Assembly (NCBI GenBank): GCA_963727525.1 | Contig: CAVSGO010000007.1 | Location: 1,120,001-1,184,000, forward strand | Length of the DNA: 64,000 nucleotides | Origin: an uncultured bacterium | Lineage (GTDB): Bacteria > Krumholzibacteriota > Krumholzibacteriia > LZORAL124-64-63 | Direction: 5' to 3' | Shown: piece by piece, positions 2,536-57,575 of the stretch | Numbering within the stretch: position 1 is the stretch's first letter | How the letters are laid out: each line of letters starts with the position of its first letter | Made by a program: the position numbers and the translations under genes | The notes under the pieces: generated by a model | The model's database searches: none | Told to the model about the DNA's origin: nothing | The model's input: the letters and a program-made list of their open reading frames with translations, nothing else

Positions 2536-2692
2536 GGAGGCTCCTTCGACACGGGAAAACTCTCGTTGATCGTACGGTCTAGCCGCCGCCGCGGTCAATG
2601 TCGCAGGGCGCCTGACGACGCGCCAGCAAAGAACGGCGGGGCTCCGGATCGAGCCGGAACCCCGCGTCGCGTCCTTGCCTCCGTCGGAGGCG

Positions 2693-38611: not shown

Positions 38612-40300
<1,689 letters not shown>

Positions 40301-40316
40301 TCAGCGCAAGTCGGGT

Positions 40317-40604
40317 TTACAGGATCGCGAGGACGTCGCTCTCCCGCAGAATCAGGTAGTCCTTGCCCTCGACGGTGACCTCGGTGCCCGCATACTTGCC
40401 GTAGAGCACCACGTCGCCCTTCTTGACCTCGGGCGCCACGCGCTCACCGCTGTCGCTGACCCGGCCCGGTCCTACAGCGATGATCTTGCCCTGCTGCGGC
40501 TTCTCCTTGGCGGTGTCGGGAATGATGATCCCGCCCTTGATCTGCTCCTGCGCCATCGGCTCGACGACGACCCGGTCGGCCAGGGGCTTCATGGAAATGG
40601 CCAT
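40317..40604 (-). CDS. groES: Co-chaperonin GroES
   Basis: [28 protein letters not shown] motifs. Confidence 0.97.
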
Positions 40605-40645
40605 TGCCTGCCTCCTCGATCTGGGGTGAATGCGGGACACTGCCG

Positions 40646-40672
40646 CTAGCAGTCTCACCGCGTGATTGCTAA
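40646..40672 (-). promoter_or_regulatory. CIRCE element (HrcA operator)
   Basis: TTAGCAATC-N9-GACTGCTAG on the minus strand versus consensus TTAGCACTC-N9-GAGTGCTAA; just downstream of a TATATT -10 (40681-40686). Confidence 0.8.
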
Positions 40673-40868
40673 GCGGGCGGAATATAGTGGCCATACACCC
40701 TTCCGCAAGGCGGAATTTCGCGTTATCGCGGCAGGATATGTCAGCGGCTGCCATCCTGACAGCGCAGTCATTCATGATGTTCCATGATTTGATGTGATGT
40801 GCTGATATGAGAGCCGGCCCAAAAAGAGGGCCGGACCCGGAGCCGGGGTGCTGGGCGCTGCCAGCGGG

Positions 40869-41450
40869 TCAGGAGCCGACGATCGTGATCGTCTCCTCCT
40901 TGAGGAGCTGGCGGTCGAGATAGATGCGCAGCAGGTACTCTCCCGTCTCGCGATGCTTCGCGCGCGAGATGTCGAAGATCGATTCCAGCATGAACGACGG
41001 CGCCTTCACGTGCTGAAGCTCGTGCCGGGAGTGATGTAGGTCGACCGCCTTCTTCCACGCGATGTCGATGTCGTACCCGCCGCTGTCGGCCGGCGTGACG
41101 GCGACCTCGGCGTAGCGGCGATACAGTTCGCGACCGTCGGGGCGGATCCAGACGAGGTGGGCCGAGTACAGCCGATCCGTACGCACGTCATGGAACGTCA
41201 CACGCGCGCGCACCCGACTCGTCTTCTTGATGCGGAACTCGAGGTCCTTGTCGCGCAGCCAGTGCTTCTTCGTGTAGCGGCGGGAGAAGGTGGTCGTGAT
41301 GTGGAACTGGTCGGCGGGCGCTTTCTCGCCGGCGGCCAGCGCCTGCTCATGGGCCGCCTGCTGCTGGGCCTCGCGAGTGTCGCAGCCACCAAGGGCCACC
41401 GTCAATAACATGAGCGCGAGCGTGATCATTCCGATGCGCCAGGATACCAT
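40869..41450 (-). CDS. Hypothetical lipoprotein (Ig-like beta-sandwich)
   Basis: Lipobox LGGC; beta-strand-rich; GEYLLRIYLD motif; GGAGG RBS. Confidence 0.65.
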   Translation of the reverse strand: MVSWRIGMITLALMLLTVALGGCDTREAQQQAAHEQALAAGEKAPADQFHITTTFSRRYTKKHWLRDKDLEFRIKKTSRVRARVTFHDVRTDRLYSAHLVWIRPDGRELYRRYAEVAVTPADSGGYDIDIAWKKAVDLHHSRHELQHVKAPSFMLESIFDISRAKHRETGEYLLRIYLDRQLLKEETITIVGS

Positions 41451-41483
41451 GGTGCCTCCAGCTGTCCGCGATCTGCACGAGCG

Positions 41484-41519
41484 CAGAGGCGGCCGGGCGC
41501 GAGCCCGGCCGCCGCCTGT
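41484..41519 (-). terminator. GC-rich hairpin after the C25 gene
   Basis: GGCGGCCGGGC-GCGA-GCCCGGCCGCC. Confidence 0.5.
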
Positions 41520-41543
41520 GGTCACAGTGGCACGGGGCCACCG

Positions 41544-44500
41544 TTATTTCAAGAGCAGCATCTTGCGCGTGAGCTGCCCCGCGTCGCTGGTCAAGCGGTA
41601 GAAGTACAATCCGCTGGCCACCAGGCCGCCTTGGTCGTTCTGCCCCTGCCACGTCACCTCGTGGGTGCCCGGCGCCTGCAGTCCATGCACGAGCGTGCGC
41701 ACGAGCTTGCCCTGGACATCGAAGATCTGCAACGAGATCTCCTGCGCCCGCGGCACCGCATACGTGATGGTGGTGCGCGGGTTGAACGGGTTCGGGTGAT
41801 TCTGGTGCAGCCCCACGGCGAGCGGGATCTCCGCGTCCACGCCCGTGGAGATGTCGAAGGTGACGTCACCATCGGCCGTGTCCACGGCCTGATGCTGCGC
41901 GGCGTCGCGCACGGTCACGCGGAAGCGGCCGGTGTTCAGCCCCGGCTGCCCCGCGAAGTGCTCGTTCCACACGAAGCTGTAGCTGCCGGCAAAGGCGCCT
42001 TCCGCCACCGGGTAGATGTCGCTGCCGACCACGAAGGCGATCTCCGCATCGACCACGCCGATGTCGTCCGCCGCGTTCCACGTCACATTGACCGGCGTGC
42101 TCGTGGAGAAGGTCTGCCCTCCGTTGGGGTAGGTCAGCGCCACCGTGGGCGGCGTCTGGTCGGCGATGAGAACGTTCGCGTCGAGCGACAGGTCGTCGAC
42201 CAGGGCCTCGACGATCGAACCGGAGCCCGTGTCCTGGGCGATGAAGCGCAGGCGGACGTTGGGCGTCATGGCGATGTAGTCCTCGAGCACGAAGCTCTGC
42301 TGCACCCAGCTGCGGTTGCTCGTGGTGGTGTTCTCGAGCGTGACCCACGACGAGCCGTCGTCGGTGGCCTGGACAACCCAGGCGTCCTCGCCTGGCGCGT
42401 TGCCCGTGTCGTTGCTGAACCAGCGCCAGTAGCTGACGGTGGCGCCCGCATAAGCCGAGAGGTCATAGACCGGGCTGTAGAGCGTCGTCGCCCCGTTGTC
42501 GACATCGTCGCCGCCCTCCACGGCACCCTCGGAATCCTGGCCGGTCACCCAGCAGAGCGTGCCAGGCGTCGGGGTGTGGTCGTCGCTCGGCACGAGGATC
42601 TCGCCGCCGGCCGACACGTAGACGGTATTGGGATCGACACGAGTCCAGATGCCCGTGGTCGCGGTGTCGCCGCCGCCCACGTTGACCTGCCAGCCGGTGT
42701 CGGTTTCCATGGCGTCGTCGAGAATGTGCGTGACGTCGGCCACCTGGAACGAATACACCGGCCAGGGCGCGCCGACTGGATCGGCCGAATCGTTGCCCAC
42801 CACGTCGGCCGCGGTGAGCCAGTACTGCACCCGGGTGCCGACCGGCTGGCCCGGAATCTCCCCGTGCACCAGGCCGCTCGGCGGGTCAACCACGGTGAGC
42901 GGAACCTCGAACGGTCCGCCGTTCGTGGACGACGTGTAATACAGGTGCCGCGAAGCCACGCCGGTGACGTCGGTGATGTTGCTTTCCACGACGTACGGAC
43001 CCGCCGTGTCGGTGGTGTTGCCCAGCATCGTCGTGTTCGCGATGTACGGACCTCGGATGTCGACGAGATTGAAATCCGCCACCGTGAGATGGTCCTCGGT
43101 GATGACCACGTTGCGCGTGGTGTCGGGCGCGAAGCTGTCGTGGTACACGGCCACGTCCCAGGTGCCCACCGGTACGCTGCCCTCGTAGTGGCCGCTCGCA
43201 TCGGACGCGATCTGGCGGCCGGCGCCGACGACCGTCACCAGTGCGCCCTCGATCGGCGCGCCGCCGCCCGAGGCGTTCGTGATCGCGCCACCCAGGCTGC
43301 CCTGGATCTGCGGCACGATGGGCACGATCCGGATCGCGCGCCCGGCCGCTACGGTCGCGGCGCCGCCGGCGTAGTGATTGCCATACGCATAGGTGAGGCC
43401 GTCGGTGCGGTCCTCGTTCTGGATGCCGACGGTGAAGTACGTCGACTCGTCACCATAGATCGACACGCTGTTGTAGAGGATCTCGATGGGGCCGTCGCCC
43501 GTCTCGGTCGCATGGTAGGCGGGATCGTAGAGGATGATCTGGAAGGTGTTGTTGCCGCTGTATCCGCCGCCGGTCTCGGCCCGCCAGCCCGTCCACTGCA
43601 CGATGAATCGATGCTGAGCCGTGTCGTTGTACGTGTGGACGGTTCCGTTGGCGAGATCGTCCCAGAACCCACAGATCATGTTGCCGGGGCCGCCGTCGCT
43701 CGGCAGGTACCAGTTGCGGTACAACCGCTGGTAGGTGTGGCCGAACGCGAGCCAGCCGTTGGTGCAGATCGACACCTGCGTCTGCGGCTGGCCGTAGAGC
43801 TCGAAGGTGAACGGCAGCGCGAAGGTGCCGGTGTCGTCGTCGTAGGACGAGTTGTCCGACAGGCCCGTGTTCTGGCCGATCGCGGAGATGTCCATCCAGT
43901 CGTAAACCGGCGCATTGGCATCGGAGTCGGTGTTGTCGAACGCGTAGTAGCCGTATGCGTCGGGACCGGCCGGATCGCCGGCGACCGCCGTGCCGATCAC
44001 CTTCTGGAACTCCAGCGTGCTGGTTCCACCCTCGGCGAACTGCAGCGTGAGCGTGAAGTTCGCCAGATGGCCCGGATAGCAGTCGGAGGAGATACTCACG
44101 GCGAAGGGGTCACTCTGGCTTACCTGTTGCCCGATCGGCAAGGCGCCGAACGTGCCGGTGTCGTCCGTGATCGTCACCCAGTTGCTCGTGGTGGACAGAG
44201 TCGCCGTGGCCCCGCTCGAGGCCAGATTGCCCGTGTTGACGAGGTCGCTCGTCACGTTGCCCGTTTCTCCCGGGTCCATGGTGCCGCCAGGCCCACTGTA
44301 ATTCACGCGGCTGAGGCTGCCGCGCGGACCGGTGACGAGCACGTCGACAAGGCTGGTCCAGGTCTGGGCGCCGCTGCTGGCATCCAGCCGCAGCGAGATG
44401 GTCTGGCCGCCCGGAGCATCGGCGTCGAGGCTCACCGCGTACGCCCCCTGACTCCAGGCCGATGCGCCGCCTGCAATCGTCCCGAACGCCTGCGTGCCCG

Positions 44501-46667
44501 TGGTGACGTGCACATAGGGCAACGGACTGCTGAGCGTCGCCGTGACGCTGCCCAGCCCGTTGCTCCCGTGGTTGGCGAGCTGAATCGTGAGATCCAGCGC
44601 CTCGCCGGGATTCGGCACGTCGTCACCGTTGCCGCTCGCCTCGCTCAACTGCAGCGCGCTGTAGTCGAGCGATGCGCTCACGTTGCCGATCGTCGCGGAT
44701 CCGAGGAACGGCTTGAGGTTGTGCTTGGTCACCGTGACCTGCAGCGTGCCGTCGGCGACGCCCGCCACCGACAGCACCGCCTGGCCGGCCTGGTCGGTGT
44801 ACGCCGTGGTCTGAACGTTCCCGGCCTGGTAGACGGTCACCATCGCGTCGGCCACCGGTATGCCGCCCACCATCACCGTGACGGGGATGGCATTGGCGCC
44901 ACTGGACAGGGTCGCCGGATAGCTGACCGTGGCCGCGACGGGCACGCCCGTGTAGATCTCGGTCGCGGGATCACCCATCAGGTTGTTCCACGTCGACCAG
45001 ATCGTGACGTTGCTCGGTTCGTTGACGATGAAATTCTTGTAGAGCGCAAGCTTGCCGCGGGTCAGGGCGGGACCCACGCGGTAGTCGCCCGTGTTCAAGA
45101 CGCCGTTGCACACGCCAAGGAAGATGCAGTTGTTGTAACGCGTGTGGGTATGGATGGTCGAGGTCCCGATCGCCGCGACACCGCCACCGCCGGTGTTGCG
45201 CAGGAAAGCCTCGCTCTGCGAGGTCTCGGATAGGAACGACCCCGTGCCACAGGTCATGATGACGGCGAATGGCAACTGGCGGCCGTTGGACAGGGAGTTG
45301 ATGTAGGAATTGGAGAATCCACTCATACCCCACCAGCCGCGGTACGTGAAGATCGACTCGCCCTGGTTGATCGTGTTGAACATCTGCGTCGTGAAATCAC
45401 CGCTGAAGATGGTGTCGATGCGCGTGTATTCGAGGCTCTGCAGCGACTCCTTCACGAACTGCTGGACCCAGACGGTGCTGTAGCCGGAGTTGCCGGGATC
45501 GCCCGTCAAGCCTGCCGTGGTGAACCAGCTCTGATCGCTGAGATCGGGATTGGTCTCATACTGTACGACCTTGTTCACCACGTTCGTCAGCTCCGCTGCG
45601 CTAATCACCGACAGGCGACCGATGTGGACATCCGACAGCACGTCGCCACCCTCGAGCAGGGTGTATTCGTGATCGCCCTCGCCGGAAGCGCCGGAGAGGT
45701 TCTCCTGCCAGGTCGGGATCGAGACGGAACCGGACGCGTCGCCCACCAGCGCGACGAATTCGAGGGGCGGATCGACGTTGTTGTAAATCGACTGGAGGTA
45801 GGACTTGATTGCCGTGTTCGAGGTGCCCGTCTGTGCCGTGGTCGCCAGCAGCACGTGATAGCCCTGACGGCGGCGCCAATCCAGAAGCGGCTGCGCGGCC
45901 GCCGTCACGGACGCGTTATCGGGGCAGATCATCAGGTAGGTCCCCGGTCCGACCATCGTATCGGCGTCGCGGACATAGCCGATGATCTCCTGCTCGTATA
46001 TGCGCGCAAACGATTCCGGGATGCGATGGTGCGCAATCACCGGGTCGTTGCGGGTGTCGCGACCGGCGAACGTCACGTCGACCGTCAGCTTGTGCGCCAC
46101 GGCGATGGCGCCGGTGCTCGGATCGTAGCTGACCGGTGCAAAGGTGACTGGCACGACGCGCAGGCCGTGCATCAGCGCGGGCTCCCCGAGGGCGACCGTG
46201 GCCTCGGACCGCGGCGCCGCCGCATACTGCGTCAGGTCGAGATGCAACGGGGTGTCCGCCTGGAAGGCGTCGCGCAGGGGCAAGTTGGGCGCGATGGCCA
46301 TCGGTGCCAAGGGCGTCATCTCCTTGTCGACCACGCGCAGGCGAGCACCGACGCCCGCCGGCAGAGCCACCAGGCGCGTGATGGTGGGCAGGGCGGCCTG
46401 GCCGACCTGCCCGCTGACACCGCCATCGGCCAGGGCGAGGGCCTGATAGGTACGACCGTCGATCGTCATGTCCGTGACGTCGAGGCTCGGGACGGTCAGT
46501 TCCAGAGTGAATCCATCCAGGCGCTCGGCGAGCACCTTGACGGCGGCGTCCCCCGTATCTCCCTGCGGCGACAACGATAGCGATCGTGTCGCGTCGTCAG
46601 CGGCCCAGGCCGGGGTAACGGCCACGACCAGCGTGAGGATGATCACGGCCCACTTTTGCCAGCGCAT
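41544..46667 (-). CDS. Secreted C25 (gingipain-like) protein, YRG variant, with Ig-like, carboxypeptidase-regulatory-like and FlgD-Ig C-terminal domains
   Basis: Signal peptide; FVALVGD, IGRLS, TYRG, MTCGTG, NLMGDP motifs; NHPNPFNP...RKMLLLK C-terminus. Confidence 0.85.
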   Translation of the reverse strand: MRWQKWAVIILTLVVAVTPAWAADDATRSLSLSPQGDTGDAAVKVLAERLDGFTLELTVPSLDVTDMTIDGRTYQALALADGGVSGQVGQAALPTITRLVALPAGVGARLRVVDKEMTPLAPMAIAPNLPLRDAFQADTPLHLDLTQYAAAPRSEATVALGEPALMHGLRVVPVTFAPVSYDPSTGAIAVAHKLTVDVTFAGRDTRNDPVIAHHRIPESFARIYEQEIIGYVRDADTMVGPGTYLMICPDNASVTAAAQPLLDWRRRQGYHVLLATTAQTGTSNTAIKSYLQSIYNNVDPPLEFVALVGDASGSVSIPTWQENLSGASGEGDHEYTLLEGGDVLSDVHIGRLSVISAAELTNVVNKVVQYETNPDLSDQSWFTTAGLTGDPGNSGYSTVWVQQFVKESLQSLEYTRIDTIFSGDFTTQMFNTINQGESIFTYRGWWGMSGFSNSYINSLSNGRQLPFAVIMTCGTGSFLSETSQSEAFLRNTGGGGVAAIGTSTIHTHTRYNNCIFLGVCNGVLNTGDYRVGPALTRGKLALYKNFIVNEPSNVTIWSTWNNLMGDPATEIYTGVPVAATVSYPATLSSGANAIPVTVMVGGIPVADAMVTVYQAGNVQTTAYTDQAGQAVLSVAGVADGTLQVTVTKHNLKPFLGSATIGNVSASLDYSALQLSEASGNGDDVPNPGEALDLTIQLANHGSNGLGSVTATLSSPLPYVHVTTGTQAFGTIAGGASAWSQGAYAVSLDADAPGGQTISLRLDASSGAQTWTSLVDVLVTGPRGSLSRVNYSGPGGTMDPGETGNVTSDLVNTGNLASSGATATLSTTSNWVTITDDTGTFGALPIGQQVSQSDPFAVSISSDCYPGHLANFTLTLQFAEGGTSTLEFQKVIGTAVAGDPAGPDAYGYYAFDNTDSDANAPVYDWMDISAIGQNTGLSDNSSYDDDTGTFALPFTFELYGQPQTQVSICTNGWLAFGHTYQRLYRNWYLPSDGGPGNMICGFWDDLANGTVHTYNDTAQHRFIVQWTGWRAETGGGYSGNNTFQIILYDPAYHATETGDGPIEILYNSVSIYGDESTYFTVGIQNEDRTDGLTYAYGNHYAGGAATVAAGRAIRIVPIVPQIQGSLGGAITNASGGGAPIEGALVTVVGAGRQIASDASGHYEGSVPVGTWDVAVYHDSFAPDTTRNVVITEDHLTVADFNLVDIRGPYIANTTMLGNTTDTAGPYVVESNITDVTGVASRHLYYTSSTNGGPFEVPLTVVDPPSGLVHGEIPGQPVGTRVQYWLTAADVVGNDSADPVGAPWPVYSFQVADVTHILDDAMETDTGWQVNVGGGDTATTGIWTRVDPNTVYVSAGGEILVPSDDHTPTPGTLCWVTGQDSEGAVEGGDDVDNGATTLYSPVYDLSAYAGATVSYWRWFSNDTGNAPGEDAWVVQATDDGSSWVTLENTTTSNRSWVQQSFVLEDYIAMTPNVRLRFIAQDTGSGSIVEALVDDLSLDANVLIADQTPPTVALTYPNGGQTFSTSTPVNVTWNAADDIGVVDAEIAFVVGSDIYPVAEGAFAGSYSFVWNEHFAGQPGLNTGRFRVTVRDAAQHQAVDTADGDVTFDISTGVDAEIPLAVGLHQNHPNPFNPRTTITYAVPRAQEISLQIFDVQGKLVRTLVHGLQAPGTHEVTWQGQNDQGGLVASGLYFYRLTSDAGQLTRKMLLLK

Positions 46668-46749
46668 GCTTCTCGCCTCCATCTCGTTCAAGGGCACGCA
46701 GCCGCACGCTGCGGCGCGACGTCCGAGGTCGGTTGAGTTCTCGCATTTC

Positions 46750-46905
46750 ATTATAGCAGATTGCATATTTTCAAGTACGTCCGTTTTCTTAACGATTCCG
46801 TGATTAATCCCGACAAATTGTCCTGTAGAGCGCGCATTCTGCAGGATTTGTCTCATAAATATGATTTTCGACCCATGGCGAGGGCATTCGGCGCCGTGCT
46901 ATACT
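46750..46905. promoter_or_regulatory. Divergent extended -10 promoters of the PGA locus
   Basis: TGCTATAAT on the minus strand (46750-46758) and TGCTATACT on the plus strand (46897-46905) in an AT-rich intergenic region. Confidence 0.55.
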
Positions 46906-46954
46906 CGCCCGTACTGAAACACCGTAACCCGACGTATGCCGGAGGTTGTCGCCC

Positions 46955-48604
46955 ATGATCCGCGTTTTGACCCGACCCCTAGCCCTGCTCGTGCTTCTCG
47001 TCGCCGCCACGGCCACGGCCGGCGTGATCAACGTACCCGGCGACTACTCCCTGATCCAGGATGCCGTCATGGCCGCGGCGTCTGGCGACACGGTCCTCGT
47101 CGCCGCCGGGACCTACCACGATTGCACCCACGAGACGGAAGGGCCGGGCACCACCCCGGCCTGCGTCATCATGCGTTCGGGCGTGACGCTGCGGGGCGTG
47201 AGCCAGAGCGGCACCGTCATCGACGCCGAGGGCCTCGGCCGCGGCATCTTCGTGCAGAACGTGGCGAACTGCCGCATCGAGAACCTCACCGTCACCGGCG
47301 CCTTCGCCGACGTCTACGGGGCCGGCATCCTGGTACGCCGCGTCGGCGATACCGTCACCATGACGGACGTGACGATCGATCAGAACCTCGACGGCGGGAT
47401 CATCTGCACCAGCCACGCCGACCCGGTGCTGACCCGCGTCACGTTCACGCAGAACGTCGCCAAGCAGGGTGGTGGACTGTCGATTGAAGATACGAGTTCT
47501 GTCCAGGTCATCGACTGCATCGTCGACGACAACAGCGCCCCCTCGGCGGCGGGCGTGTTCGTGCGCAACCAGAGCGTGGCCACGCTCACCGGTTGCCAGA
47601 TCATCGACAACGTGGGCACAGCGCCCAACAGCAACTGCGGGGGCTTGTTCGTCAACGAGGCCGAGATCCACATGAGCGACTGCCTCGTCGCCGGCAACGT
47701 CAGTCTCGGCAACGGTGGCGGCATCGCCATGAGTGCCACTTCGGGCGAGATCGCCAATAGCGTGATCAGCGGCAATACCTGCAGTTCGCCCTTCACGAAG
47801 GGCGGCGGCCTCGCTTGTGAGCAGTCGTCGGTGACCCTGCGCAACCTGCTCATCGCGAACAACGCCGTCACCGGCCTGTCGGGCAAGGGCGGTGGCATAG
47901 ACGTGAGCTTCTCGCCGTCGCCGACGATCGAGCACTGCACGATCGTGGGCAACTCCTGCGAGGCCTCGGGCAGCGGCGGCGGCATCTCCTGCCAGCTCGG
48001 CGCCTCGCCGACGCTCACCAATTGCATCATCGCCGGCAGCCCCGTGGGCGAAGCGATGGTCTGCCTCATCGCCGCGAACCCCACGGTGACGGGTTGCGAC
48101 CTGTGGGGCAATGCCGGGGGCGACGCGATCTGCGGCACCGACGGCGGCTGCAACTTCTCGGCCGACCCCGTCTTCTGCGGTACGACCGGCCACGAGTACA
48201 ACATCCAGCCGGGCAGCCCCTGCGCGGCCGGCAACCATCCCGATGGCGGCGCCTGCGGTGCGAGTTACTGTGGAGCGTACGCCGTTGGCTGCGGCGACGT
48301 GGGTGTGGAGGATCTGCCGGACCCGGCCGGTCTCGTGCTGGGCAACGCGCCGAATCCGTTCAACCCACTGACCAGCATCTACTTCATCCTTGACGCGCCC
48401 GGCGACGCCGTGCTTGGTATCTACGACCTGCGTGGCCACGCGCTCCGCACCTTCCACTTCTCCCAGGTGCGCGCGGGTCAACGGCACGAGATCGTCTGGA
48501 ATGGCAAGGACGACGCCGGCCTGGACCTGCCTAGTGGTGTTTATCTCTACCGCCTGCAGGCAAACGGCCTGACCACCAGCAAGAGGATGAGTCTGATCCG
48601 ATGA
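46955..48604 (+). CDS. Secreted right-handed parallel beta-helix protein with FlgD-Ig C-terminal domain
   Basis: VPGDYSLIQDAV...GDTVLV.AGTY; GGGI/N-rich repeats; NAPNPFNP...KRMSLIR C-terminus. Confidence 0.82.
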   Translation: MIRVLTRPLALLVLLVAATATAGVINVPGDYSLIQDAVMAAASGDTVLVAAGTYHDCTHETEGPGTTPACVIMRSGVTLRGVSQSGTVIDAEGLGRGIFVQNVANCRIENLTVTGAFADVYGAGILVRRVGDTVTMTDVTIDQNLDGGIICTSHADPVLTRVTFTQNVAKQGGGLSIEDTSSVQVIDCIVDDNSAPSAAGVFVRNQSVATLTGCQIIDNVGTAPNSNCGGLFVNEAEIHMSDCLVAGNVSLGNGGGIAMSATSGEIANSVISGNTCSSPFTKGGGLACEQSSVTLRNLLIANNAVTGLSGKGGGIDVSFSPSPTIEHCTIVGNSCEASGSGGGISCQLGASPTLTNCIIAGSPVGEAMVCLIAANPTVTGCDLWGNAGGDAICGTDGGCNFSADPVFCGTTGHEYNIQPGSPCAAGNHPDGGACGASYCGAYAVGCGDVGVEDLPDPAGLVLGNAPNPFNPLTSIYFILDAPGDAVLGIYDLRGHALRTFHFSQVRAGQRHEIVWNGKDDAGLDLPSGVYLYRLQANGLTTSKRMSLIR

Positions 48605-51600
48605 CGAAGTTCAGCTTGCCGGGCCTGGTTGCGGCTCTGCTCGTCCCGGTCGCCTTCGCGGCGGTCGGGACGGCCGTCGCGACCCCCGCGCCCGCGGTTC
48701 ACGCCCAGGAAACCCTCGTCACCCTGTCGCCGGAGCCGGCACAGGGCCAGCTCCCCGCGGCCCGCGGCGTCCTCGTCGCCGTGCCGGCGGACGCGCGGAC
48801 AGTCACCGCCAGCGTGGTCGGCGGCGCGGCCCGCGGCGCCCACGTCGTCGGCGACATCATGGTGATGCGCGGCGTGGCGATGGTGCTCGTCGCGGTCGAC
48901 GAGCCGGGGTCTGGACCGGTCACCGTGGCGGTACGCCACGATGGCGACTGGAGCCGGCCGTCGGCCCGCGCGCAGAACCTGGCGTTGCCGGGACTGCCGG
49001 CGATCGCGACGGGAATGCCGCCGGCCGACAAGGCGATGACCGACGTCACGGCGGCGGGCTACGTCATCGTCACCGCCCCCCAGTTCGCGAGTGCCGTGCA
49101 GCCCCTGGCCGACTGGAAACGCCGCAAGGGCCTGCACGTGACCGTCGTCACCACGAACGAGACGGGAACCTCGGCGGCCGCGATCAAGGCCTGGTTGCAG
49201 AACGCGTACGACACGTGGGATCTTCCGCCGGCCTACGTCCTGCTCGTGGGCGATGTCGACACGTTGCCCACGTACAACTACTCCGGCAACGTCACCGACC
49301 TCCCCTTCGCCTTGCTCGACGGCGACGACTTCCTGCCCGACCTCATGGTGGGCCGCTTCTCCGTCTCCAACCAGACCGAAGCGCAGACCCTGGTCGCCAA
49401 GACCGTGGCCTACGAGCGCACGCCCGACATGGGACAGCCCGACTGGTTCACCCGCGCCTTGCTGGTGGCCGGTCAGTCGGCGGCCACGACGCCGAAGCGT
49501 GTGGTGGCGTTCTGCGGCGAGCAACTCGGCACGCTCGGATTCGACCCCATCGATCCCTCGATCTCGGTGCGTGATCAGCAGGGGAACCCCATCTTCGTGC
49601 ACTACGGCAACTACATCGTCTCGCCGTACCAGCAGGACGAGGACATCGGCATCCCCGAGGGTGACGGCCCCGACATGGTGGACGAGGCCATCGACACAGG
49701 GTGCAGCTTCGTGGTCTACCGCGGCTGGGCCTACGGCCCCAACGGGTGGCAACCGCCCACCTACACCGTGGACGATATCCCCGGGCTCGCCAACGGCTCG
49801 ATGCTGCCGGTCGTCATGAGCTTCGTGTGCCTCAATGGCAACTTCGCCGCCGATATCCCCTGCTTCGGCGAGGTCTTCACGCGCCAGGGTCAGCCCACCG
49901 GTCCCTTCAAGGGTGCCGTGGCCTTCATCGGTAACGGCGAGCACTGGTCCCACACGCGTTTCAACGACGCGATGGCCATCAGCTTCTTCGAGCGCGTCGT
50001 GGATCCCGGCATCACCGACCTCGGCAGCCTGATGACCGCGGGCAAGCTGCGCTTCCTCGACTACTACCCCGGCGAGCTGCAGTCGATCGGCGTCGATCCC
50101 GAGGAGTCGGCGATCTTCTACCTGCACATCTACAACCTGCTCGGCGATCCGGAGCTGAACTTCCACAAGGCCGTCCCCACCGCGCTGACGGTGGCGCACG
50201 CGCTGGACGTGCACGCGGGCACGAGCTACCTGGCCGTGGACGTGCACGAAGCCGATGGCGTGACACCGCGTCCGGGCGCCCTGGTCGGCGTGGTGCAGGG
50301 TACGACCCTGCTCGGTAGCGCTTACGCCGGCGACGACGGTATCGCCCGCGTGGCTCTGACCACGCCGGTGAGCGCCGGCGACGACGTGACCGTCACCATC
50401 ACGCACCCCGATCGGCTGGCGGTGGAGGATGCGCTGCCGGTGACGTCGGGCGGCGCCTTCGTGGCCGTGACGGAGACCGCGATCGACGCGGGCGGCGACG
50501 CGGTGGTGAGCCCGGGCGAAACCGTCCAGGTCACCCCCACATTGCACAACGGGGGCGCCGCGGCCAGCGACGCCGCGAGCGCCACGCTCACGCTGACCGG
50601 ACCGGCCACTGTGGTGATCGGCACCACCTCGGTACCCGCCATCCCCGCCGGGGCCGACGGCACGCCCGCCCAGCCTTTCACCTTCACCGTGGCGACCGAT
50701 GCCCAGGACGGGGACACGATTCTCGGCATCGTCGAGGTGCAACGCAGCGGGGCGAGCGACTGGTCGCAGTTCACGCTACCGGTGCGCGCGCCTTCCGTGC
50801 AGATCGTCGCCGCGCAGGTCGCCGGCGGTACCGCGCAGCCCGGCGCCACGCGCGACGTGACGCTGTACCTGACCAACGCGGGAAGCGCCGCCACGGCGGG
50901 CGGCACTCTCGCCATCACCCTCGACGACCCGGTCGGCGCGACGGTATCGGGCAGTCCGCGCCCCTTCGACGCCCTCGCGGCCGCGTCGGGCGACACCGTC
51001 GCCACCACGTTCGGTCTCACCATCGACGCCGACGTGGCCGTGGGCACCGGCCTGACCTTCAACGTGGACGTCACCACCACCGAGGGCGGCACGTCCGCCA
51101 CGACGGTCGCGCTCGTGGTCGGCGACGTGGACGTGACGGCGCCGGTAGGCCCCGACGCTTACGGCTACTATGCCTACGACAGCGCCGATATCCTCTATCC
51201 CGGCCAGTCGCCCACTTACGCGTGGCAAGAACTGAGTACGGACCTGGGCGGGGACGGTACGCGGCTGCCGTTCCAGTACGACAATATCGAGACCCAGATC
51301 ACGGTGGACCTGCCATTCAGCTTCACGTACTACGGACAAGCCTTCACCAGCATCCGCGTCAGCGACAACGGTTGGATCAGCTTCGACGCCGCCGACGCCC
51401 ATTACAACTTCTACAACTGGCCCCTGCCCTCGGACGAGGGCAACGGCGCCCTGGTCGCCCCGTTCTGGGACAACCTCTCCCCCGAGCATTTCGCGGATCC
51501 AGATCAGAATCCCACGGGCCTCGAGGCCGATGGCGTGTACTACCGCTATGACATCGCTGCCGGGACGTTCACCGTGGAGTGGAGTCGCATGCGCAACTAC

Positions 51601-52407
51601 AAGGAGGAGATCGCCGACCTGCAGACCTTCCAGGTCGTGCTCACGCCGAACGGCAGCGACGACGGCGACATGCTCTTCCTCTACAAGCAGGTGGCCAACA
51701 GCGACTACCTGCGCATGTTCGCCTCGGTGGGCATCGAATCGCCCGACGAGACCATGGGGCTGCAGCTCACCTACGACAACGTGTACACCCCCGGCATGCC
51801 GGCGCTGGGCCCCGGCCTCGCGGTGCGCATCACCACGGAAGCGCCGGTGCGCGTGCCCTACACCGTGGCCGACCTCGCTGCGGTGACCGCGCCCGACGGC
51901 GTGCGGATCTCCTGGCGGACGGTGGATGAACGCCCGGTGATTGGGTGGGAGGTCCTGCGGTTGGATGGCGCCGCCCCGGCGAGCGTCACGCCCACGCTGT
52001 TGCCGGCGAGCGCCCGCAGCATCGTGGTCGCGGGCGCCGATGCGGCCGCACAGTTCGCCCTGGTGGCGCACCACCCCTACGGAGCGACCTCGCGCGTGGG
52101 CACGGTGACGGCCACCGGAACCGTGGCCAGGCTCGCCCTCGGCGCGGCCTCGCCCAATCCGCTGCGCGGCGGCGAGACGGCGATCGCCTTCGCCCTACCG
52201 CGCGCCGGTGCGGCCACGCTTCGGATCTACGACGTGCGCGGGCGCTGCGTGCGCACGCTCGTCGACGGCGACGCGACCGCCGGTGACGCGATCGTGACGT
52301 GGGACGGACGTGACGGGGCGGGCCGGGCATTGCCCGACGGCGTCTACGTCTATCGCCTGGAGGCCGCGGGTCGGACGTTGACTCGCAAGTTGCTGCTGGT
52401 GCGCTGA
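48601..52407 (+). CDS. Secreted C25 (gingipain-like) protein, YRG variant, with FlgD-Ig C-terminal domain
   Basis: Signal peptide; YVLLVGD, VGRFS, VYRG, FVCLNG, YNLLGDP motifs; SPNP...RKLLLVR C-terminus; ATGA overlap with the upstream gene. Confidence 0.85.
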   Translation: MTKFSLPGLVAALLVPVAFAAVGTAVATPAPAVHAQETLVTLSPEPAQGQLPAARGVLVAVPADARTVTASVVGGAARGAHVVGDIMVMRGVAMVLVAVDEPGSGPVTVAVRHDGDWSRPSARAQNLALPGLPAIATGMPPADKAMTDVTAAGYVIVTAPQFASAVQPLADWKRRKGLHVTVVTTNETGTSAAAIKAWLQNAYDTWDLPPAYVLLVGDVDTLPTYNYSGNVTDLPFALLDGDDFLPDLMVGRFSVSNQTEAQTLVAKTVAYERTPDMGQPDWFTRALLVAGQSAATTPKRVVAFCGEQLGTLGFDPIDPSISVRDQQGNPIFVHYGNYIVSPYQQDEDIGIPEGDGPDMVDEAIDTGCSFVVYRGWAYGPNGWQPPTYTVDDIPGLANGSMLPVVMSFVCLNGNFAADIPCFGEVFTRQGQPTGPFKGAVAFIGNGEHWSHTRFNDAMAISFFERVVDPGITDLGSLMTAGKLRFLDYYPGELQSIGVDPEESAIFYLHIYNLLGDPELNFHKAVPTALTVAHALDVHAGTSYLAVDVHEADGVTPRPGALVGVVQGTTLLGSAYAGDDGIARVALTTPVSAGDDVTVTITHPDRLAVEDALPVTSGGAFVAVTETAIDAGGDAVVSPGETVQVTPTLHNGGAAASDAASATLTLTGPATVVIGTTSVPAIPAGADGTPAQPFTFTVATDAQDGDTILGIVEVQRSGASDWSQFTLPVRAPSVQIVAAQVAGGTAQPGATRDVTLYLTNAGSAATAGGTLAITLDDPVGATVSGSPRPFDALAAASGDTVATTFGLTIDADVAVGTGLTFNVDVTTTEGGTSATTVALVVGDVDVTAPVGPDAYGYYAYDSADILYPGQSPTYAWQELSTDLGGDGTRLPFQYDNIETQITVDLPFSFTYYGQAFTSIRVSDNGWISFDAADAHYNFYNWPLPSDEGNGALVAPFWDNLSPEHFADPDQNPTGLEADGVYYRYDIAAGTFTVEWSRMRNYKEEIADLQTFQVVLTPNGSDDGDMLFLYKQVANSDYLRMFASVGIESPDETMGLQLTYDNVYTPGMPALGPGLAVRITTEAPVRVPYTVADLAAVTAPDGVRISWRTVDERPVIGWEVLRLDGAAPASVTPTLLPASARSIVVAGADAAAQFALVAHHPYGATSRVGTVTATGTVARLALGAASPNPLRGGETAIAFALPRAGAATLRIYDVRGRCVRTLVDGDATAGDAIVTWDGRDGAGRALPDGVYVYRLEAAGRTLTRKLLLVR

Positions 52408-52412
52408 CGACC

Positions 52413-53585
52413 ATGACCCTGATCGTGATCCTGCTGCTCCTCCTTGCCACGCTCGGCGTGTGGGAAACCGCACGCCACGCGCGGTATCGTCGGCGCATCC
52501 CCATCCGCGTGCACGTCAACGGCAGCCGCGGCAAGAGTTCGGTGACGCGCCTGATCGCCGCGGGCCTGCGTGGCGGTGGGCTACGGGTGGTGGCCAAGAC
52601 CACGGGGTCGGCAGCGGCCCTCATCCATGCCGACGGCCGCGAGACCCCGGTGGCGCGCCGCGGCGGTCCGAACATCCGCGAGCAGCTCGGCGTCATGCGG
52701 CAGGCCGTGCGCGAACGGTGCGATGCCCTCGTGATCGAGTGCATGGCCGTACGCCCCGACCTGCAGCGCACCTGCGAGCACCAGATCGTGCACGCCACTC
52801 ACGGCGTGCTGACGAACGTGCGGCCCGACCATCTCGAGGTGATGGGACCGACGATGGACGATGTCGCCGCGAGCCTGGCGAACACCATCCCCCGGCGTGC
52901 GCGGTATTTCACGGCGGAGATCGAGTTCGCGCCCTACCTGGAACGACGGGCCGCGGGGCAGGGCACATCGTTCACGCACGCCGGTGCCGATACCATCACG
53001 CCGCAGGAGATGGAAGGTTTCCGGTACGTCGAGTTCCCCGACAATGTGGCGCTGGCCCTGGCCACGTGCGTGGGCGCCGGCGTGGAACGCGAGGCCGCCC
53101 TGCGCGCGATGTACGACGTCGTGCCCGACGTGGGCGCGCTCACGCGCTGGCGCTTCATCGAGGGCACCAAGGACGTGACGTTCGTCAATGCGTTCGCAGC
53201 CAACGATCCTGTGAGCTACGTCCACGTGTGGGATCGCCTGCGCCTGGCCGACCGCAGCGACGAGGTCATCATGCTAATGAACAACCGCGGCGACCGCATG
53301 CGGCGCGCCAAGGACCTCGCGCCCCTCTTCGGCCGCGAGCTGGTGGCCGGCCGTTACGTACTGATCGGCGAGCAGACCCGCGTGCTGGCGGACATGCTAC
53401 GCCGTCAGGGGCTACCGATGGACCGCGTCGAGGACCTCGCCGGACGTCCCGCACCGGAGCTCTGGGATAAACTCGTGCAACTCGCCCCGCCGCGGTGCCT
53501 CGTGGTGGGGATCGGCAACATCGCCAACATCGGCAACGAACTGCTGGACCATCTACGGTCCCGTATGCAGCAGGAGCTGGTCTGA
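52413..53585 (+). CDS. pgsB: Poly-gamma-glutamate synthase PgsB/CapB
   Basis: RVHVNGSRGKSSVTRLIAAGL, AKTTG, NIREQ, IECMA, TNVRPDHL, NAFAAND, R.DR motifs. Confidence 0.93.
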   Translation: MTLIVILLLLLATLGVWETARHARYRRRIPIRVHVNGSRGKSSVTRLIAAGLRGGGLRVVAKTTGSAAALIHADGRETPVARRGGPNIREQLGVMRQAVRERCDALVIECMAVRPDLQRTCEHQIVHATHGVLTNVRPDHLEVMGPTMDDVAASLANTIPRRARYFTAEIEFAPYLERRAAGQGTSFTHAGADTITPQEMEGFRYVEFPDNVALALATCVGAGVEREAALRAMYDVVPDVGALTRWRFIEGTKDVTFVNAFAANDPVSYVHVWDRLRLADRSDEVIMLMNNRGDRMRRAKDLAPLFGRELVAGRYVLIGEQTRVLADMLRRQGLPMDRVEDLAGRPAPELWDKLVQLAPPRCLVVGIGNIANIGNELLDHLRSRMQQELV

Positions 53586-54058
53586 TGCTGTACCAAGCCA
53601 TCGGCCTGGGTCTCGTGGTCAGCCTCGTATTCTCCGAGATCCTCGGCCTCGCCGCCGGCGGCCTCGTGGTGCCGGGCTACATCGCGCTCTACCTCGACCA
53701 GCCGCTGCGCATCGCCGCGACGGTGCTCGCCGCCCTCGTGACCTTCGCATCGGTGAACCTGCTCGGACGCGTGATCCTTCTCTACGGCCGGCGCACGATG
53801 GTGTTCTGCGTGCTGGCGGGGTTCCTCTTCGGCTACCTCACGCGGTACCTGCTGGTCTTCAACGAAACGTTTGCTCTGGGCGTGGACACCGCGGTACTGC
53901 GCTCGATCGGCTACATCATCCCCGGCCTCATGGCCTACTGGATGATGCGGCAGGGTATCATCGAGACCCTGTGCACTCTCGCCATCGCGGCCTTCATCGT
54001 CCGCGTCGCTCTGGTCGTCGTCCATGGAGGCAGGCTCATTGAGCTGGCGCTTGGATAG
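53585..54058 (+). CDS. pgsC: Poly-gamma-glutamate biosynthesis protein PgsC/CapC
   Basis: GLVVSLVFSE, AGGLVVPGYIAL, ILLYGRR, IGYIIPGL.A...RQG motifs. Confidence 0.93.
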   Translation: MLYQAIGLGLVVSLVFSEILGLAAGGLVVPGYIALYLDQPLRIAATVLAALVTFASVNLLGRVILLYGRRTMVFCVLAGFLFGYLTRYLLVFNETFALGVDTAVLRSIGYIIPGLMAYWMMRQGIIETLCTLAIAAFIVRVALVVVHGGRLIELALG

Positions 54059-56057: not shown

Positions 56058-57575
56058 ATGAGACGGAAACGTACCAATCGCATCGTCGTAATGGGCCTCG
56101 TTGCAGCACTCCTGCCGGCCGCGATGGCCGCGGCCTACGTACCCGATCCGCTCGGCCTCACCTACGAGGTCGGCATCGGCGGGCGTCCGTACCTGCGCGT
56201 GGGCGCGGTGCCCGTGATGCTGGCGCTGCGGGGCCCGGGCACGTTCTACGGCTACGCCCGCACCACCTTCCTCCCCGGCGAGGCGGGCAAGAAGCAGGGC
56301 CGCCTCCAGGTGAGCGGTTTGCCGGGCGATCCGATCACGCTCCCGCTCACCTTCGAGCCGTCGACCGAGAGCGACTTCGACGACGGTCGCCCCGGCCAGG
56401 CGAGCGCCGGCGCGCGCTTCGAGGTGAAGGTGCCCGACGGCGCCTGGACGCTCGTGCTGCGCGGCGACGTGGACGCGCCCACCGACGGCGCCGACGAGAT
56501 CTTCGTGACGTTGTACTATGACGGCCCGCGCCAGACCTCGCGCAAGGGTACGGCCAGCGCCAAGTCGTCACCCTGGTCCTGGCACAACCGCGCCGGTCTC
56601 GAACTGATCTACGATGACAACATCCTCACGCAGAGTCCCGACGCGTTCATCATCTTCGAGAACAATTCCGATCCGGCGGCCTTCCGCATCCACAGTACGG
56701 ACGACCTGCTCGTGGTGCCGAGCGTCGATCTCGAGGTGCGGCGCAATCTCTTCGACTTCGGACAGACCCGCGTTCGCTTCCGGGTGAAGTACTGGCATTA
56801 CACTTACAACCCCATCAAGACGAACACGGATTTCGACTTCTACCTGCGCCAGTACTGGGGCCGAAAGACGTCGTTCGAACTCTACGTGAATCACGCGCCC
56901 GAGCAATACATCCGGCAGCTCAACGACTTCGCGCCGTTCCAGGATCCGGAAACGCCGACCGAATCCAAGGAATTCCGATTCACGCGCAACGTCGTGAATC
57001 TCACCTGGCGCCAGAGCGTCAGCCGGCGCGTCGCCACCAAGCTCTCGCTGGAGACCAACCGCCGCTATTACAACAAGCCGTTCATCGAGAACGACATCGA
57101 GGCCTGGGAACTGCGCGGCAATGTGCGCTTCCGCGCGACCCGCTGGCTCGATATCGACGTCGACTACGGCTGGGAAGACGCGGCCGGCCGCGGCTACGAC
57201 ACCGTGGGTGAGACCCCGGAAACCAGCGACGACGGCGATCCCAGCTACGAGCGCGACCTCTATCGCCTCGGCTTCGGCATCGACACCCCGTTCCTCGATC
57301 CGGTCGTCGACGGCCTCGACGTCGCCGGCCTCTTCATGGACTATTACTACACCACGAAGAAGCCCATCTTCGATGCCCCGTTCCAGAGGGGCCGGCGAGA
57401 CAAGTGGGGCAAGGTCTTCGTGACGCTGCACAAGCGACTGAACCGGCGGATCAGCCTCGACGTGGGCTTCACCTATTCCGAACGCGCCGTGGAGTCGCCG
57501 TGGTACGGCGACATCACCCTCGACAAGAACTACATCCAGCACCGTTACTCGGTCGGTGCCGACTACCGATTCTGA
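56058..57575 (+). CDS. Putative outer-membrane beta-barrel protein with N-terminal beta-sandwich domain
   Basis: Signal peptide; YDDNI motif; alternating aromatic strands; terminal YRF (BAM-type signal). Confidence 0.7.
   Translation: MRRKRTNRIVVMGLVAALLPAAMAAAYVPDPLGLTYEVGIGGRPYLRVGAVPVMLALRGPGTFYGYARTTFLPGEAGKKQGRLQVSGLPGDPITLPLTFEPSTESDFDDGRPGQASAGARFEVKVPDGAWTLVLRGDVDAPTDGADEIFVTLYYDGPRQTSRKGTASAKSSPWSWHNRAGLELIYDDNILTQSPDAFIIFENNSDPAAFRIHSTDDLLVVPSVDLEVRRNLFDFGQTRVRFRVKYWHYTYNPIKTNTDFDFYLRQYWGRKTSFELYVNHAPEQYIRQLNDFAPFQDPETPTESKEFRFTRNVVNLTWRQSVSRRVATKLSLETNRRYYNKPFIENDIEAWELRGNVRFRATRWLDIDVDYGWEDAAGRGYDTVGETPETSDDGDPSYERDLYRLGFGIDTPFLDPVVDGLDVAGLFMDYYYTTKKPIFDAPFQRGRRDKWGKVFVTLHKRLNRRISLDVGFTYSERAVESPWYGDITLDKNYIQHRYSVGADYRF

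Follow-up and report, generated by a model that had tools for sequence, protein, structure and literature searches.

The window analyzed here is a 64,000-nucleotide stretch from an uncultured bacterium of the phylum Krumholzibacteriota (assembly GCA_963727525.1, contig CAVSGO010000007.1, positions 1,120,001 to 1,184,000 of the forward strand). It contains a gene cluster for the synthesis of poly-gamma-glutamate (PGA) and, in that cluster, the genes for two large secreted proteins, P0001 and P0002, that resemble the gingipains RgpB and Kgp—the family C25, clan CD, peptidases (MEROPS) of Porphyromonas gingivalis. The two are C25 proteins by homology and by fold, yet they fail three hallmarks of active gingipains: the catalytic His, the acid that orients it, and the acidic residue of the S1 pocket. 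Our best reading is that they belong to a subfamily of His-less, Arg-bearing surface proteins that keep the gingipain fold, carry the sorting domain typical of a type IX secretion system (T9SS), and are dedicated to PGA, either through Cys-based processing or through binding only.

From its N-terminus, P0001 comprises a signal peptide, a gingipain-type prodomain, the His-less C25 domain, immunoglobulin (Ig)-like repeats, a NIDO-like domain, CarboxypepD_reg and Big_7 domains, and a T9SS-type C-terminal domain (CTD). Translation likely starts at Met64 of the open reading frame (ORF), because the database copy of the protein, P0123, is 1707 amino acids (aa) long; it begins MRWQKW, followed by a signal-peptide-like stretch. 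P0002 comprises a signal peptide, a short N-terminal region, the His-less C25 domain with its Ig-superfamily (IgSF) domain, CARDB/NEW3-like repeats, a NIDO-like domain, and a T9SS-type CTD. Both proteins are members of the C25 family, with PF01364 scores of 189.4 (P0001) and 213.7 bits (P0002) against the Pfam cutoff of 23. Their CTDs score 33.5 and 28.2 bits with TIGR04183 (cutoff 23), and their FlgD_ig matches lie over the Pfam cutoff. They are best read as cell-surface proteins with T9SS-type CTDs and a gingipain fold. CTDs of this same type occur on four proteins of the window.

The prodomain of P0001 is homologous to those of Kgp (5mun_A, E 1.1e-7) and RgpB (4ief_A, E 0.0034). A conserved acidic residue was sought at the position of the Arg or Lys of the gingipain inhibitory loop; the loop varies among P0001 and its relatives, is acidic in many of them, and holds no residue that is invariant. 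When modeled with AlphaFold2, residues 130–640 of P0002 are predicted with confidence (pLDDT, the per-residue score, 89.8; pTM, the overall score, 0.89) to adopt the gingipain catalytic and IgSF fold: Foldseek aligns the model across both domains with RgpB and Kgp structures (1cvr, 4ief, 6i9a, 4rbm) at E 7e-36 to 1e-34 and template-modeling (TM) scores on the target of 0.83–0.91, the best matches being RgpB (E 7e-36, TM 0.88–0.91 on the target, with 0.88 for 1cvr) and Kgp (E 4e-35). The domain that contains the GPDAYGYYA motif matches Pfam NIDO at E 1.2e-8 in P0002, which passes, and at E 1.2e-4 in P0001, which falls under the curated cutoff. In P0002 it is modeled as all-beta (pLDDT 90.2), and by sequence profile it matches residues 54–160 of RemA, an adhesin for gliding in Flavobacterium (8gl6_D, E 4.9e-9). 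Compared by Foldseek with the PDB, this model had no matches at E ≤ 1e-3, and hence gave no fold-based functional lead.

Some 45 kb from pgsB lies the gene for another C25 protein, P0003, which has FG-GAP repeats and a CTD and serves as a comparator from the same window. The original prediction, made from these letters alone, took P0003 to be canonical, and it is: GHG and NC are present, and YRGW, HTR and GPDAYGYYA are missing. Those motifs, together with a Cys, had been noted in both P0001 and P0002, and there they all stand, at the positions listed in the table. The C25 domains of P0001 and P0002 are 32% identical to each other, and each is 25–27% identical to that of P0003; the GPDAYGYYA domains of the pair are also 32% identical. 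To gauge conservation we used two sets of sequences drawn from the matches listed: P0002 with 119 homologs of 50–67% identity, and 120 homologs of P0001. As we read the alignments, the shared motifs are the mark of homology and constraint, not chance, since the two C25 domains are 32% identical, YRGW is found in 120 of 120 members of the P0002 set, and YRG in 120 of 120 of the P0001 homologs.

Where the original prediction went astray is in the register of the catalytic motif. It held that GHG had become YRG, with the catalytic His replaced by Arg. When P0002 is compared with the PDB by phmmer, its vvYRGWA aligns with vnYTGHG of RgpB, and the register is unchanged when a profile built from 31 orthologs is aligned with RgpB (1cvr and 4ief, nYTGHG, E ~2e-54), Kgp (4rbm, nYTAHG) and PorU (6za2, nYAGHG). 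An L-INS-i alignment of 152 domains—the best 150 representatives at 50% identity, plus P0001 and P0002—sets five canonical rows (YSG-HG, YQG-HG or HRD-HG) opposite YRG-WG or YRG-WA. Finally, with a profile built from the 145 YRG-type domains of that alignment, the His of six out of six canonical sequences, P0003 included, falls on the Trp column. Four solved C25 structures and all six canonical sequences thus place the His on Trp. On these alignments, Trp has taken the place of the catalytic His, and the Arg of YRG sits two residues before it (His-2), off the gingipain His position. One MAFFT alignment, of 120 orthologs with P0001 and with P0003 as the sole canonical row, did bring YRG into register with GHG; we regard this as an artefact, for the other four comparisons all equate Trp with His. 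Pairwise BLASTP of the P0002 and P0003 domains aligned the N-terminal subdomain only (27% identity over 177 columns) and did not reach the motif. Among the relatives are two giants, P0261 (3975 aa) and P0308 (2052 aa), with several C25 domains that have HRDHG or FRNHG. These carry Arg at His-2 and the catalytic His together, and may show the subfamily at an intermediate stage.

Residues were mapped onto gingipains by counting along the alignments of the ortholog profile with PDB chains, the numbering being checked against PMC6426963 and PMC4357240; it reproduces His211, Cys244, Asp163 and Trp284 of RgpB, and His444, Cys477, Trp513 and Asp516 of Kgp. In the parts of PMC6426963 that describe Kgp with KYT-36, the proposed triad is C477, H444 and D388, the oxyanion hole is formed by the backbone nitrogens of C477 and G445, and the amino group of the P1 Lys contacts D516, N475 O and T442 O-gamma. 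According to section 13 of PMC4357240, RgpB binds the P1 Arg through Asp163, Gly210, Gly212, Gln282 and Trp284. In P0002, Trp376 takes the place of RgpB His211 and Kgp His444, Gly375 that of RgpB Gly210, and Ala377 that of RgpB Gly212 and Kgp Gly445. The orienting acid (RgpB Glu152, Kgp Asp388) corresponds to position 293, which is Ser in P0002 and, among the 120 sequences of its set, Tyr in 81, Thr in 10, Phe in 7, Ser and Glu in 6 each, Ala in 5, and other residues in the rest. By this mapping, two of the three triad residues, the His and its acid, are gone, and the Cys is retained.

The S1 pocket appears to have changed as well. Position 301, the equivalent of RgpB Asp163, is Thr in 119 of the 120 sequences, and Val in P0002 itself; Thr452 stands for Kgp Asp516 (and RgpB Met288). 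Both S1 aspartates of the gingipains, on these alignments, are replaced by uncharged Thr or Val. Arg374, which is invariant, corresponds to RgpB Thr209 and Kgp Thr442, and so occupies, on the alignment, a position that in Kgp touches the tip of the P1 side chain. The HTR tripeptide maps to the S1 loop: His451 to RgpB Pro286 and Kgp Glu515, and Arg453 to RgpB Arg289 and Kgp Tyr517, next to the lid tryptophan, Trp449 (RgpB Trp284, Kgp Trp513), while Glu447 corresponds to RgpB Gln282. We infer that the pocket has switched from acidic, suited to Arg and Lys, to basic. The original prediction had the Arg binding glutamate carboxylates. Carboxylate binding is plausible, though not on the grounds given there: the Arg lines the S1 pocket, at the position of Kgp Thr442 and RgpB Thr209, and is not a replacement for the His.

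In the P0002 set, Tyr373, Arg374, Gly375, Trp376, Ala377, Cys410, Glu424, Glu447, Thr452, Arg453 and Asn455 are each present in 120 of 120; His451 is present in 113, with Arg in three, Thr in three and Asn in one. The P0001 homologs listed have Tyr (90), Trp (21), Leu (6) or Phe (3) at the His position and HTR in 115 of 120, and no sequence of either set, 120 and 120, has His there. The wider family is large, with 10,830 clusters at 50% identity matching at E ≤ 1e-3, of which 680 reach E ≤ 1e-30. Of the 152 domains in the alignment, 145 have Arg at His-2 and a residue other than His in the His column, and this column varies (W93, F18, Y8, A6, T5, L3, G3 and single others). Because it varies, a catalytic role for the residue at this position seems doubtful. 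The Cys, by contrast, is retained in 144 of the 145 YRG-type domains, and ranks among their six most conserved positions. Because conservation so nearly absolute is unexpected for a dead nucleophile, the nucleophile probably still matters. Besides this retained Cys410, the residues conserved subfamily-wide, yet not general to C25, are Arg374, Thr452 and Asn455. A look-up in the ESM Atlas returned generic C25 clusters only.

The alignments also count against the mechanism first proposed for these proteins, in which Arg replaces the catalytic His and the His of HTR, paired with the Cys, takes over as general base from a new position. There was reason to entertain it: HTR is conserved in both of the Krumholzibacteria families (113 and 115 of 120), it lies on a loop at the edge of the active site, a single residue away from where Kgp has Asp516, and the MAFFT register agreed with the proposal. 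But the register is that of Trp, the HTR His aligns with Kgp Glu515 rather than with a residue that faces the scissile bond, and the His is not invariant, which disfavors it as a base. Among 240 close homologs, 12 have Arg, Thr, Asn, Ser, Ala or Leu in its place. All 18 of the 18 PGA-linked relatives of the Marinimicrobia type have Asp there, and across the 152 domains the column reads H86, K23, S18, Y6, N6, Q5, R3, so that Lys, Ser, Asn, Gln, Tyr or Arg stands there in 61. (The Arg column of HTR is likewise mixed: R81, K25, Q10, W8, P7.) Alignment largely refutes this mechanism, and we consider it very improbable.

That the two proteins have to do with PGA is indicated by the company their genes keep. 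P0002 lies second in a plus-strand operon, behind a gene for a right-handed beta-helix protein whose stop codon overlaps the P0002 start by 4 nucleotides (nt), such that the two genes, to judge from the overlap, are translationally coupled; pgsB starts 5 nt past the P0002 stop. P0001 is transcribed divergently from this operon. P0002 belongs to the PGA cluster by adjacency, by shared strand, and by conserved co-location with pgsB, and is predicted to be co-operonic with pgsB, pgsC and the gene for the PGA system protein TIGR04332, in an arrangement that is conserved. Conservation was assessed by scanning species-representative genomes with patterns taken from the P0002 ortholog alignment. The patterns matched 164 stretches, 91 of which encode relatives, and the best 80 were kept and searched by tblastn with the proteins of the window. 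As the loci were chosen by similarity to P0002, the sample is biased toward P0002-like genes.

Sixty-two of these loci, under Krumholzibacteria and Eisenbacteria titles, encode P0002-like proteins (39–66% identity); 50 include at least 4.6 kb after the C25 start, and 12 with shorter flanks were set aside. The pgsB gene lies downstream on the same strand in 47 of the 50. It is the very next gene in 45 of the 47, and in the other two, both from Eisenbacteria, it has been rearranged and lies 8.6–9.0 kb off, after the genes for the 505-aa and GldK-like proteins described below. The beta-helix gene is directly upstream in 49 of the 50, and in all but two (L006 and L013) of the 43 loci with room for it, which makes 41, the upstream side also has a divergent P0001-like gene. 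All C25 genes in the P0002-like loci are YRG-type. At L006, the upstream side holds neither a beta-helix nor a P0001-like gene, and the downstream side is cut by the contig end; L006 and L042 come from the same assembly, so that one genome has two P0002-like genes.

The remaining 18 loci are more distant (24–31% identity, with about 28% for the Marinimicrobia type), have Marinimicrobia, Neomarinimicrobiota and Fidelibacterota titles among others, and encode proteins with the motifs YRGWG … C … DT[RK]. Thirteen have a full 10-kb upstream flank, and in ten of these pgsB, pgsC or a long TIGR04332-like match is found at its far edge. In four (L065, L069, L074 and L079, at ~2000–6600 on the minus strand), a P0001-like C25 gene, and not a P0002-like one, stands directly upstream of pgsB-pgsC-TIGR04332 on the same strand; the encoded proteins show 41% identity and have the motifs YRGY[VL] and HTL. 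By best match to the representatives, PGA-linked C25 genes fall into three different YRG sub-clades. The link to PGA is strong, and linkage that outlasts rearrangement and phylum boundaries points to shared function. To this extent the original prediction, of a remodelled C25 subfamily that has lost the catalytic His, kept the Cys, and is tied to the PGA locus, holds up well.

Features of the window discussed in the text, with positions counted from its first nucleotide
Feature	Coordinates	Strand	Remarks
P0001, secreted C25-like protein, 1707 aa	41544..46667	-	ORF extends to 46856; likely start Met64
P0001 prodomain, Propeptide_C25	46053..46553	-	aa 102-268; Pfam E 9.2e-15
P0001 C25 catalytic-type domain	44958..45938	-	aa 307-633; Pfam PF01364 E 1.5e-55
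P0001 YRGW	45333..45344	-	aa 505-508; Arg506 at His-2, Trp508 at catalytic-His position
P0001 Cys536 (MTCGTG)	45249..45251	-	aligns with gingipain catalytic Cys
P0001 HTR (THTRYNN)	45138..45146	-	aa 571-573; S1-pocket loop
P0001 GPDAYGYYA / NIDO-like domain	43311..44000	-	motif 43941-43967, aa 964
P0001 C-terminal FlgD_ig / T9SS-type sorting domain	41559..41795	-	
P0002, secreted C25-like protein, 1268 aa	48601..52407	+	
P0002 C25 catalytic-type domain	49060..50160	+	aa 154-520; Pfam E 6.2e-63
P0002 YRGW	49717..49728	+	aa 373-376
P0002 Cys410 (FVCLNG)	49828..49830	+	aligns with RgpB Cys244 and Kgp Cys477
P0002 HTR (SHTRFND)	49951..49959	+	aa 451-453; S1 loop, after lid Trp449
P0002 GPDAYGYYA / NIDO-like all-beta domain	51103..51930	+	motif 51148-51174, aa 850
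P0002 C-terminal FlgD_ig / T9SS-type sorting domain	52174..52368	+	
P0003, canonical C25 paralog, FG-GAP repeats and CTD	2693..7522 (or to 7669)	-	GHG aa 546, NC aa 580
Right-handed beta-helix (NosD-like) protein, T9SS-type CTD	46946..48604	+	first gene of plus-strand operon
pgsB, poly-gamma-glutamate synthase	52413..53585	+	TIGR04012 E 8.7e-121, 403 bits (cutoff 222.7)
pgsC	53600..54058	+	TIGR04011 E 3.1e-34; start approximate, longest ORF from 53495
Poly-gamma-glutamate system protein, 673 aa	54024..56045	+	TIGR04332
Conserved 505-aa protein	56058..57575	+	aromatic C-terminus (...GADYRF), signal-peptide-like N-terminus
LVIVD-repeat and FGE-sulfatase/GldK-like protein	57588..59975	+	last conserved gene of cluster

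What might such proteins do? Cys-dependent processing of PGA at the outer surface—trimming, release or transfer—strikes us as a real possibility that stops a little short of probable. In such a reaction the basic S1 pocket would take the free alpha-carboxylate of the gamma-glutamyl units, and Cys410 (Cys536 in P0001) would attack the gamma-amide. The thiolate would be stabilized by the neighboring Arg, Arg374 in P0002, in place of the His, and protons would be transferred by solvent or by the substrate. Proteins that trim, release or transfer poly-gamma-glutamate in this way would be counterparts in function to PgdS or CapD. What speaks most for chemistry of some sort is that the Cys is present in 144 of the 145 YRG-type domains and that P0001 has kept its prodomain, as would be expected of a latent enzyme. 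Caspases (C14A) supply a parallel for the pocket. They share the clan CD fold and an S1 pocket with Arg, and in the part of PMC4357240 that treats them, Arg87, Gln184 and Arg233 of caspase-7 bind the P1 Asp, two arginines in a clan CD S1 pocket conferring specificity for an acidic P1 residue. Unlike P0001 and P0002, caspases keep the His–Cys dyad, and their Arg positions are not homologous to Arg374.

Several observations weigh against this proposal. The subfamily as a whole has no conserved residue that could serve as general acid or base; Glu447 is invariant within the P0002 orthogroup only. The oxyanion-hole Gly that follows the His (Kgp Gly445) is Ala in 120 of 120 of the P0002 set, although the oxyanion hole uses the backbone nitrogen. 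We know of no clan CD enzyme that works without the His. Three of the 50 loci (L051, L052 and L054) lack pgsB within 10 kb downstream, and the genomic context covers loci similar to P0002, set against thousands of other YRG-type proteins. A bolder version of the proposal is that YRG-type C25 proteins form an unrecognized class of clan CD enzymes, with a Cys–Arg active site, an S1 pocket of inverted charge for the gamma-glutamyl alpha-carboxylate, and T9SS-type export, that dispense with the catalytic His and, within a seven-gene module, supply diderm producers of PGA (Krumholzibacteriota, Eisenbacteria, Marinimicrobia/Fidelibacterota) with their missing depolymerase, or ‘PGA sortase’, at the surface. 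Taken as a whole, this we consider doubtful.

The comparison with PgdS and CapD is one of position. In Bacillus, PgdS (NlpC/P60) and CapD (gamma-glutamyltransferase, GGT, family) are encoded beside the pgs and cap genes, and cut or anchor PGA. P0001 and P0002 resemble them in gene position and presumed role only. There is no kinship in sequence or fold, and Bacillus is a monoderm, unlike the organisms discussed here, whose proteins have the T9SS-type CTDs of diderms. Searches of Pfam and NCBIfam reported none of the domains of known PGA hydrolases and transpeptidases (PgdS NlpC/P60, CapD GGT, PghP) in P0001 or P0002. With the gingipains they share far more: the IgSF-containing fold, PF01364, the catalytic Cys, the lid Trp, the T9SS-type CTD and, in P0001, the prodomain. 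They differ in that Trp or Tyr stands for the His, the third acid and the S1 Asp are lost, Arg is present at His-2 and on the S1 loop, Ig-like repeats and a NIDO-like domain are added, and the genes reside in a PGA synthesis cluster.

The most serious alternative, which we rate as possible though on the unlikely side, is that these are pseudo-proteases that bind PGA. The scaffold would present a basic, aromatic pocket (Arg374, Arg453, Trp376, Trp449) which, together with the NIDO- and Ig-like domains, would retain the capsule without covalent chemistry. It fits such a role that the triad has lost two of its three members (His to Trp, Asp/Glu to Tyr/Ser) and that no substitute base is conserved; the many residues tolerated at the His column are what might be expected where catalysis escapes selection, and pockets of Trp and Arg are typical of ligand-binding sites. 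Linkage to the PGA genes is the same for a binding protein as for an enzyme. Clan CD pseudopeptidases also exist, the title of one reference cited in PMC4357240 naming Trypanosoma brucei metacaspase 4. These have in common with P0001 and P0002 a clan CD fold with an incomplete dyad. Metacaspase 4 is said to lack the Cys, and in this P0001 and P0002 are unlike it, for they keep theirs. A Cys kept by 144 of 145 YRG-type domains, and by 120 of 120 orthologs, is difficult to account for without a chemical role, and the retained prodomain of P0001 also argues for processing rather than mere binding.

Less probable by a good margin of our own reckoning is synteny without shared function. P0001 and P0002 would then be surface proteases of a general kind, adhesins or proteins of the envelope in candidate phyla of the FCB (Fibrobacterota–Chlorobiota–Bacteroidota) group, and the pgs neighborhood would be an inherited island of envelope-biogenesis genes. 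The YRG-type family is indeed very large (the 10,830 clusters above, and 145 of 152 aligned domains), the context covers just 80 loci picked by P0002 similarity, the groES and groEL genes are also part of the conserved block, and three of 50 loci do without pgsB. But when pgsB has moved, as it has by 9 kb in Eisenbacteria, it has stayed in the locus; and where the order of genes differs, as in the Marinimicrobia type, the genes are still within 10 kb, and a P0001-like gene directly precedes pgsB. The 4-nt overlap and 5-nt gap of P0002 with its neighbors point the same way. By rough estimate, not computed, fewer than ~1% of 24-kb stretches taken at random from a genome of a few Mb would include a pgsB present in single copy. 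We find this explanation improbable.

That P0001 and P0002 are T9SS sortases of the PorU type, cleaving CTDs and attaching cargo to the surface, is the least likely explanation of all, to be dismissed almost outright: PorU is a C25 protein that acts at the cell surface and provides the family with a transpeptidase precedent, it is the best NCBIfam match of all three C25 proteins of the window, CTD-bearing proteins number four there, and a conserved Arg reportedly needed in sortases is present in PorU (PMC5445135, in the passage concerned), but P0002 and P0001 score 56.7 and 84.5 bits with NF033707, far below its cutoff of 420 and below the 103 bits, themselves sub-threshold, of canonical P0003, PorU keeps the His in its AGHG motif, the Foldseek match of the P0002 model to PorU 6za2 is weak (TM 0.35 and 0.18), and there is no reason to expect the gene for a general sortase to follow pgsB from genome to genome.

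The literature that we searched contains no paper that links C25 proteins to PGA loci, and none on a His-less C25 subfamily. One paper on PGA in Cloacimonadota (PMC8542988) mentions, in the parts that concern us, a dockerin-bearing C25 peptidase and PGA genes separately, without linking them; in the main text of another (PMC13082233), neither ‘C25’ nor ‘gingipain’ appears. Two proteins of gingipain fold in a conserved PGA cluster suggest an undescribed way of handling this capsule polymer. Genome surveys of uncultured phyla in the FCB group regularly count ‘Peptidase C25 / gingipain-like’ genes as extracellular proteases; with the His missing from 145 of 152 aligned domains, such counts may overstate proteolytic capacity. 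If the conserved Cys is catalytic, we have a clan CD active site that functions without the His, which would be of enzymological interest and a possible source of PGA-specific tools. The conserved module as a whole—pgsB-pgsC-TIGR04332, the two His-less C25 proteins, the beta-helix protein, a probable outer-membrane barrel, and a GldK-like protein—offers testable candidates for the export, retention or trimming of PGA in diderms.

The other members of the module can be described briefly. Beta-helix proteins often bind or cut polyanionic polymers. The TIGR04332 model covers only aa 18–324 of the PGA system protein; the ~350 aa on its C-terminal side match nothing in Pfam, yet align across related loci. 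The 505-aa protein, whose gene comes after that of TIGR04332 in most related loci, has a weak match to the Autotransporter beta-domain (E 0.003, below the cutoff). From its sequence it is probably an outer-membrane beta-barrel, and it may be a PGA export pore. The last protein, with LVIVD repeats and an FGE-sulfatase domain, has as its best NCBIfam match PorK/GldK, the T9SS ring lipoprotein, at 63.9 bits against a cutoff of 350. In the divergent region between P0001 and the operon (46400–47100) we found no sigma-70-like promoter or intrinsic terminator, a result that is uninformative for this phylum. Beyond P0001 lie groES and groEL: with an ORF of 218 aa that has no family match, they adjoin P0001 at 38612..41525 on the minus strand, and the 218-aa ORF and groEL occupy the same relative place in many of the related loci.

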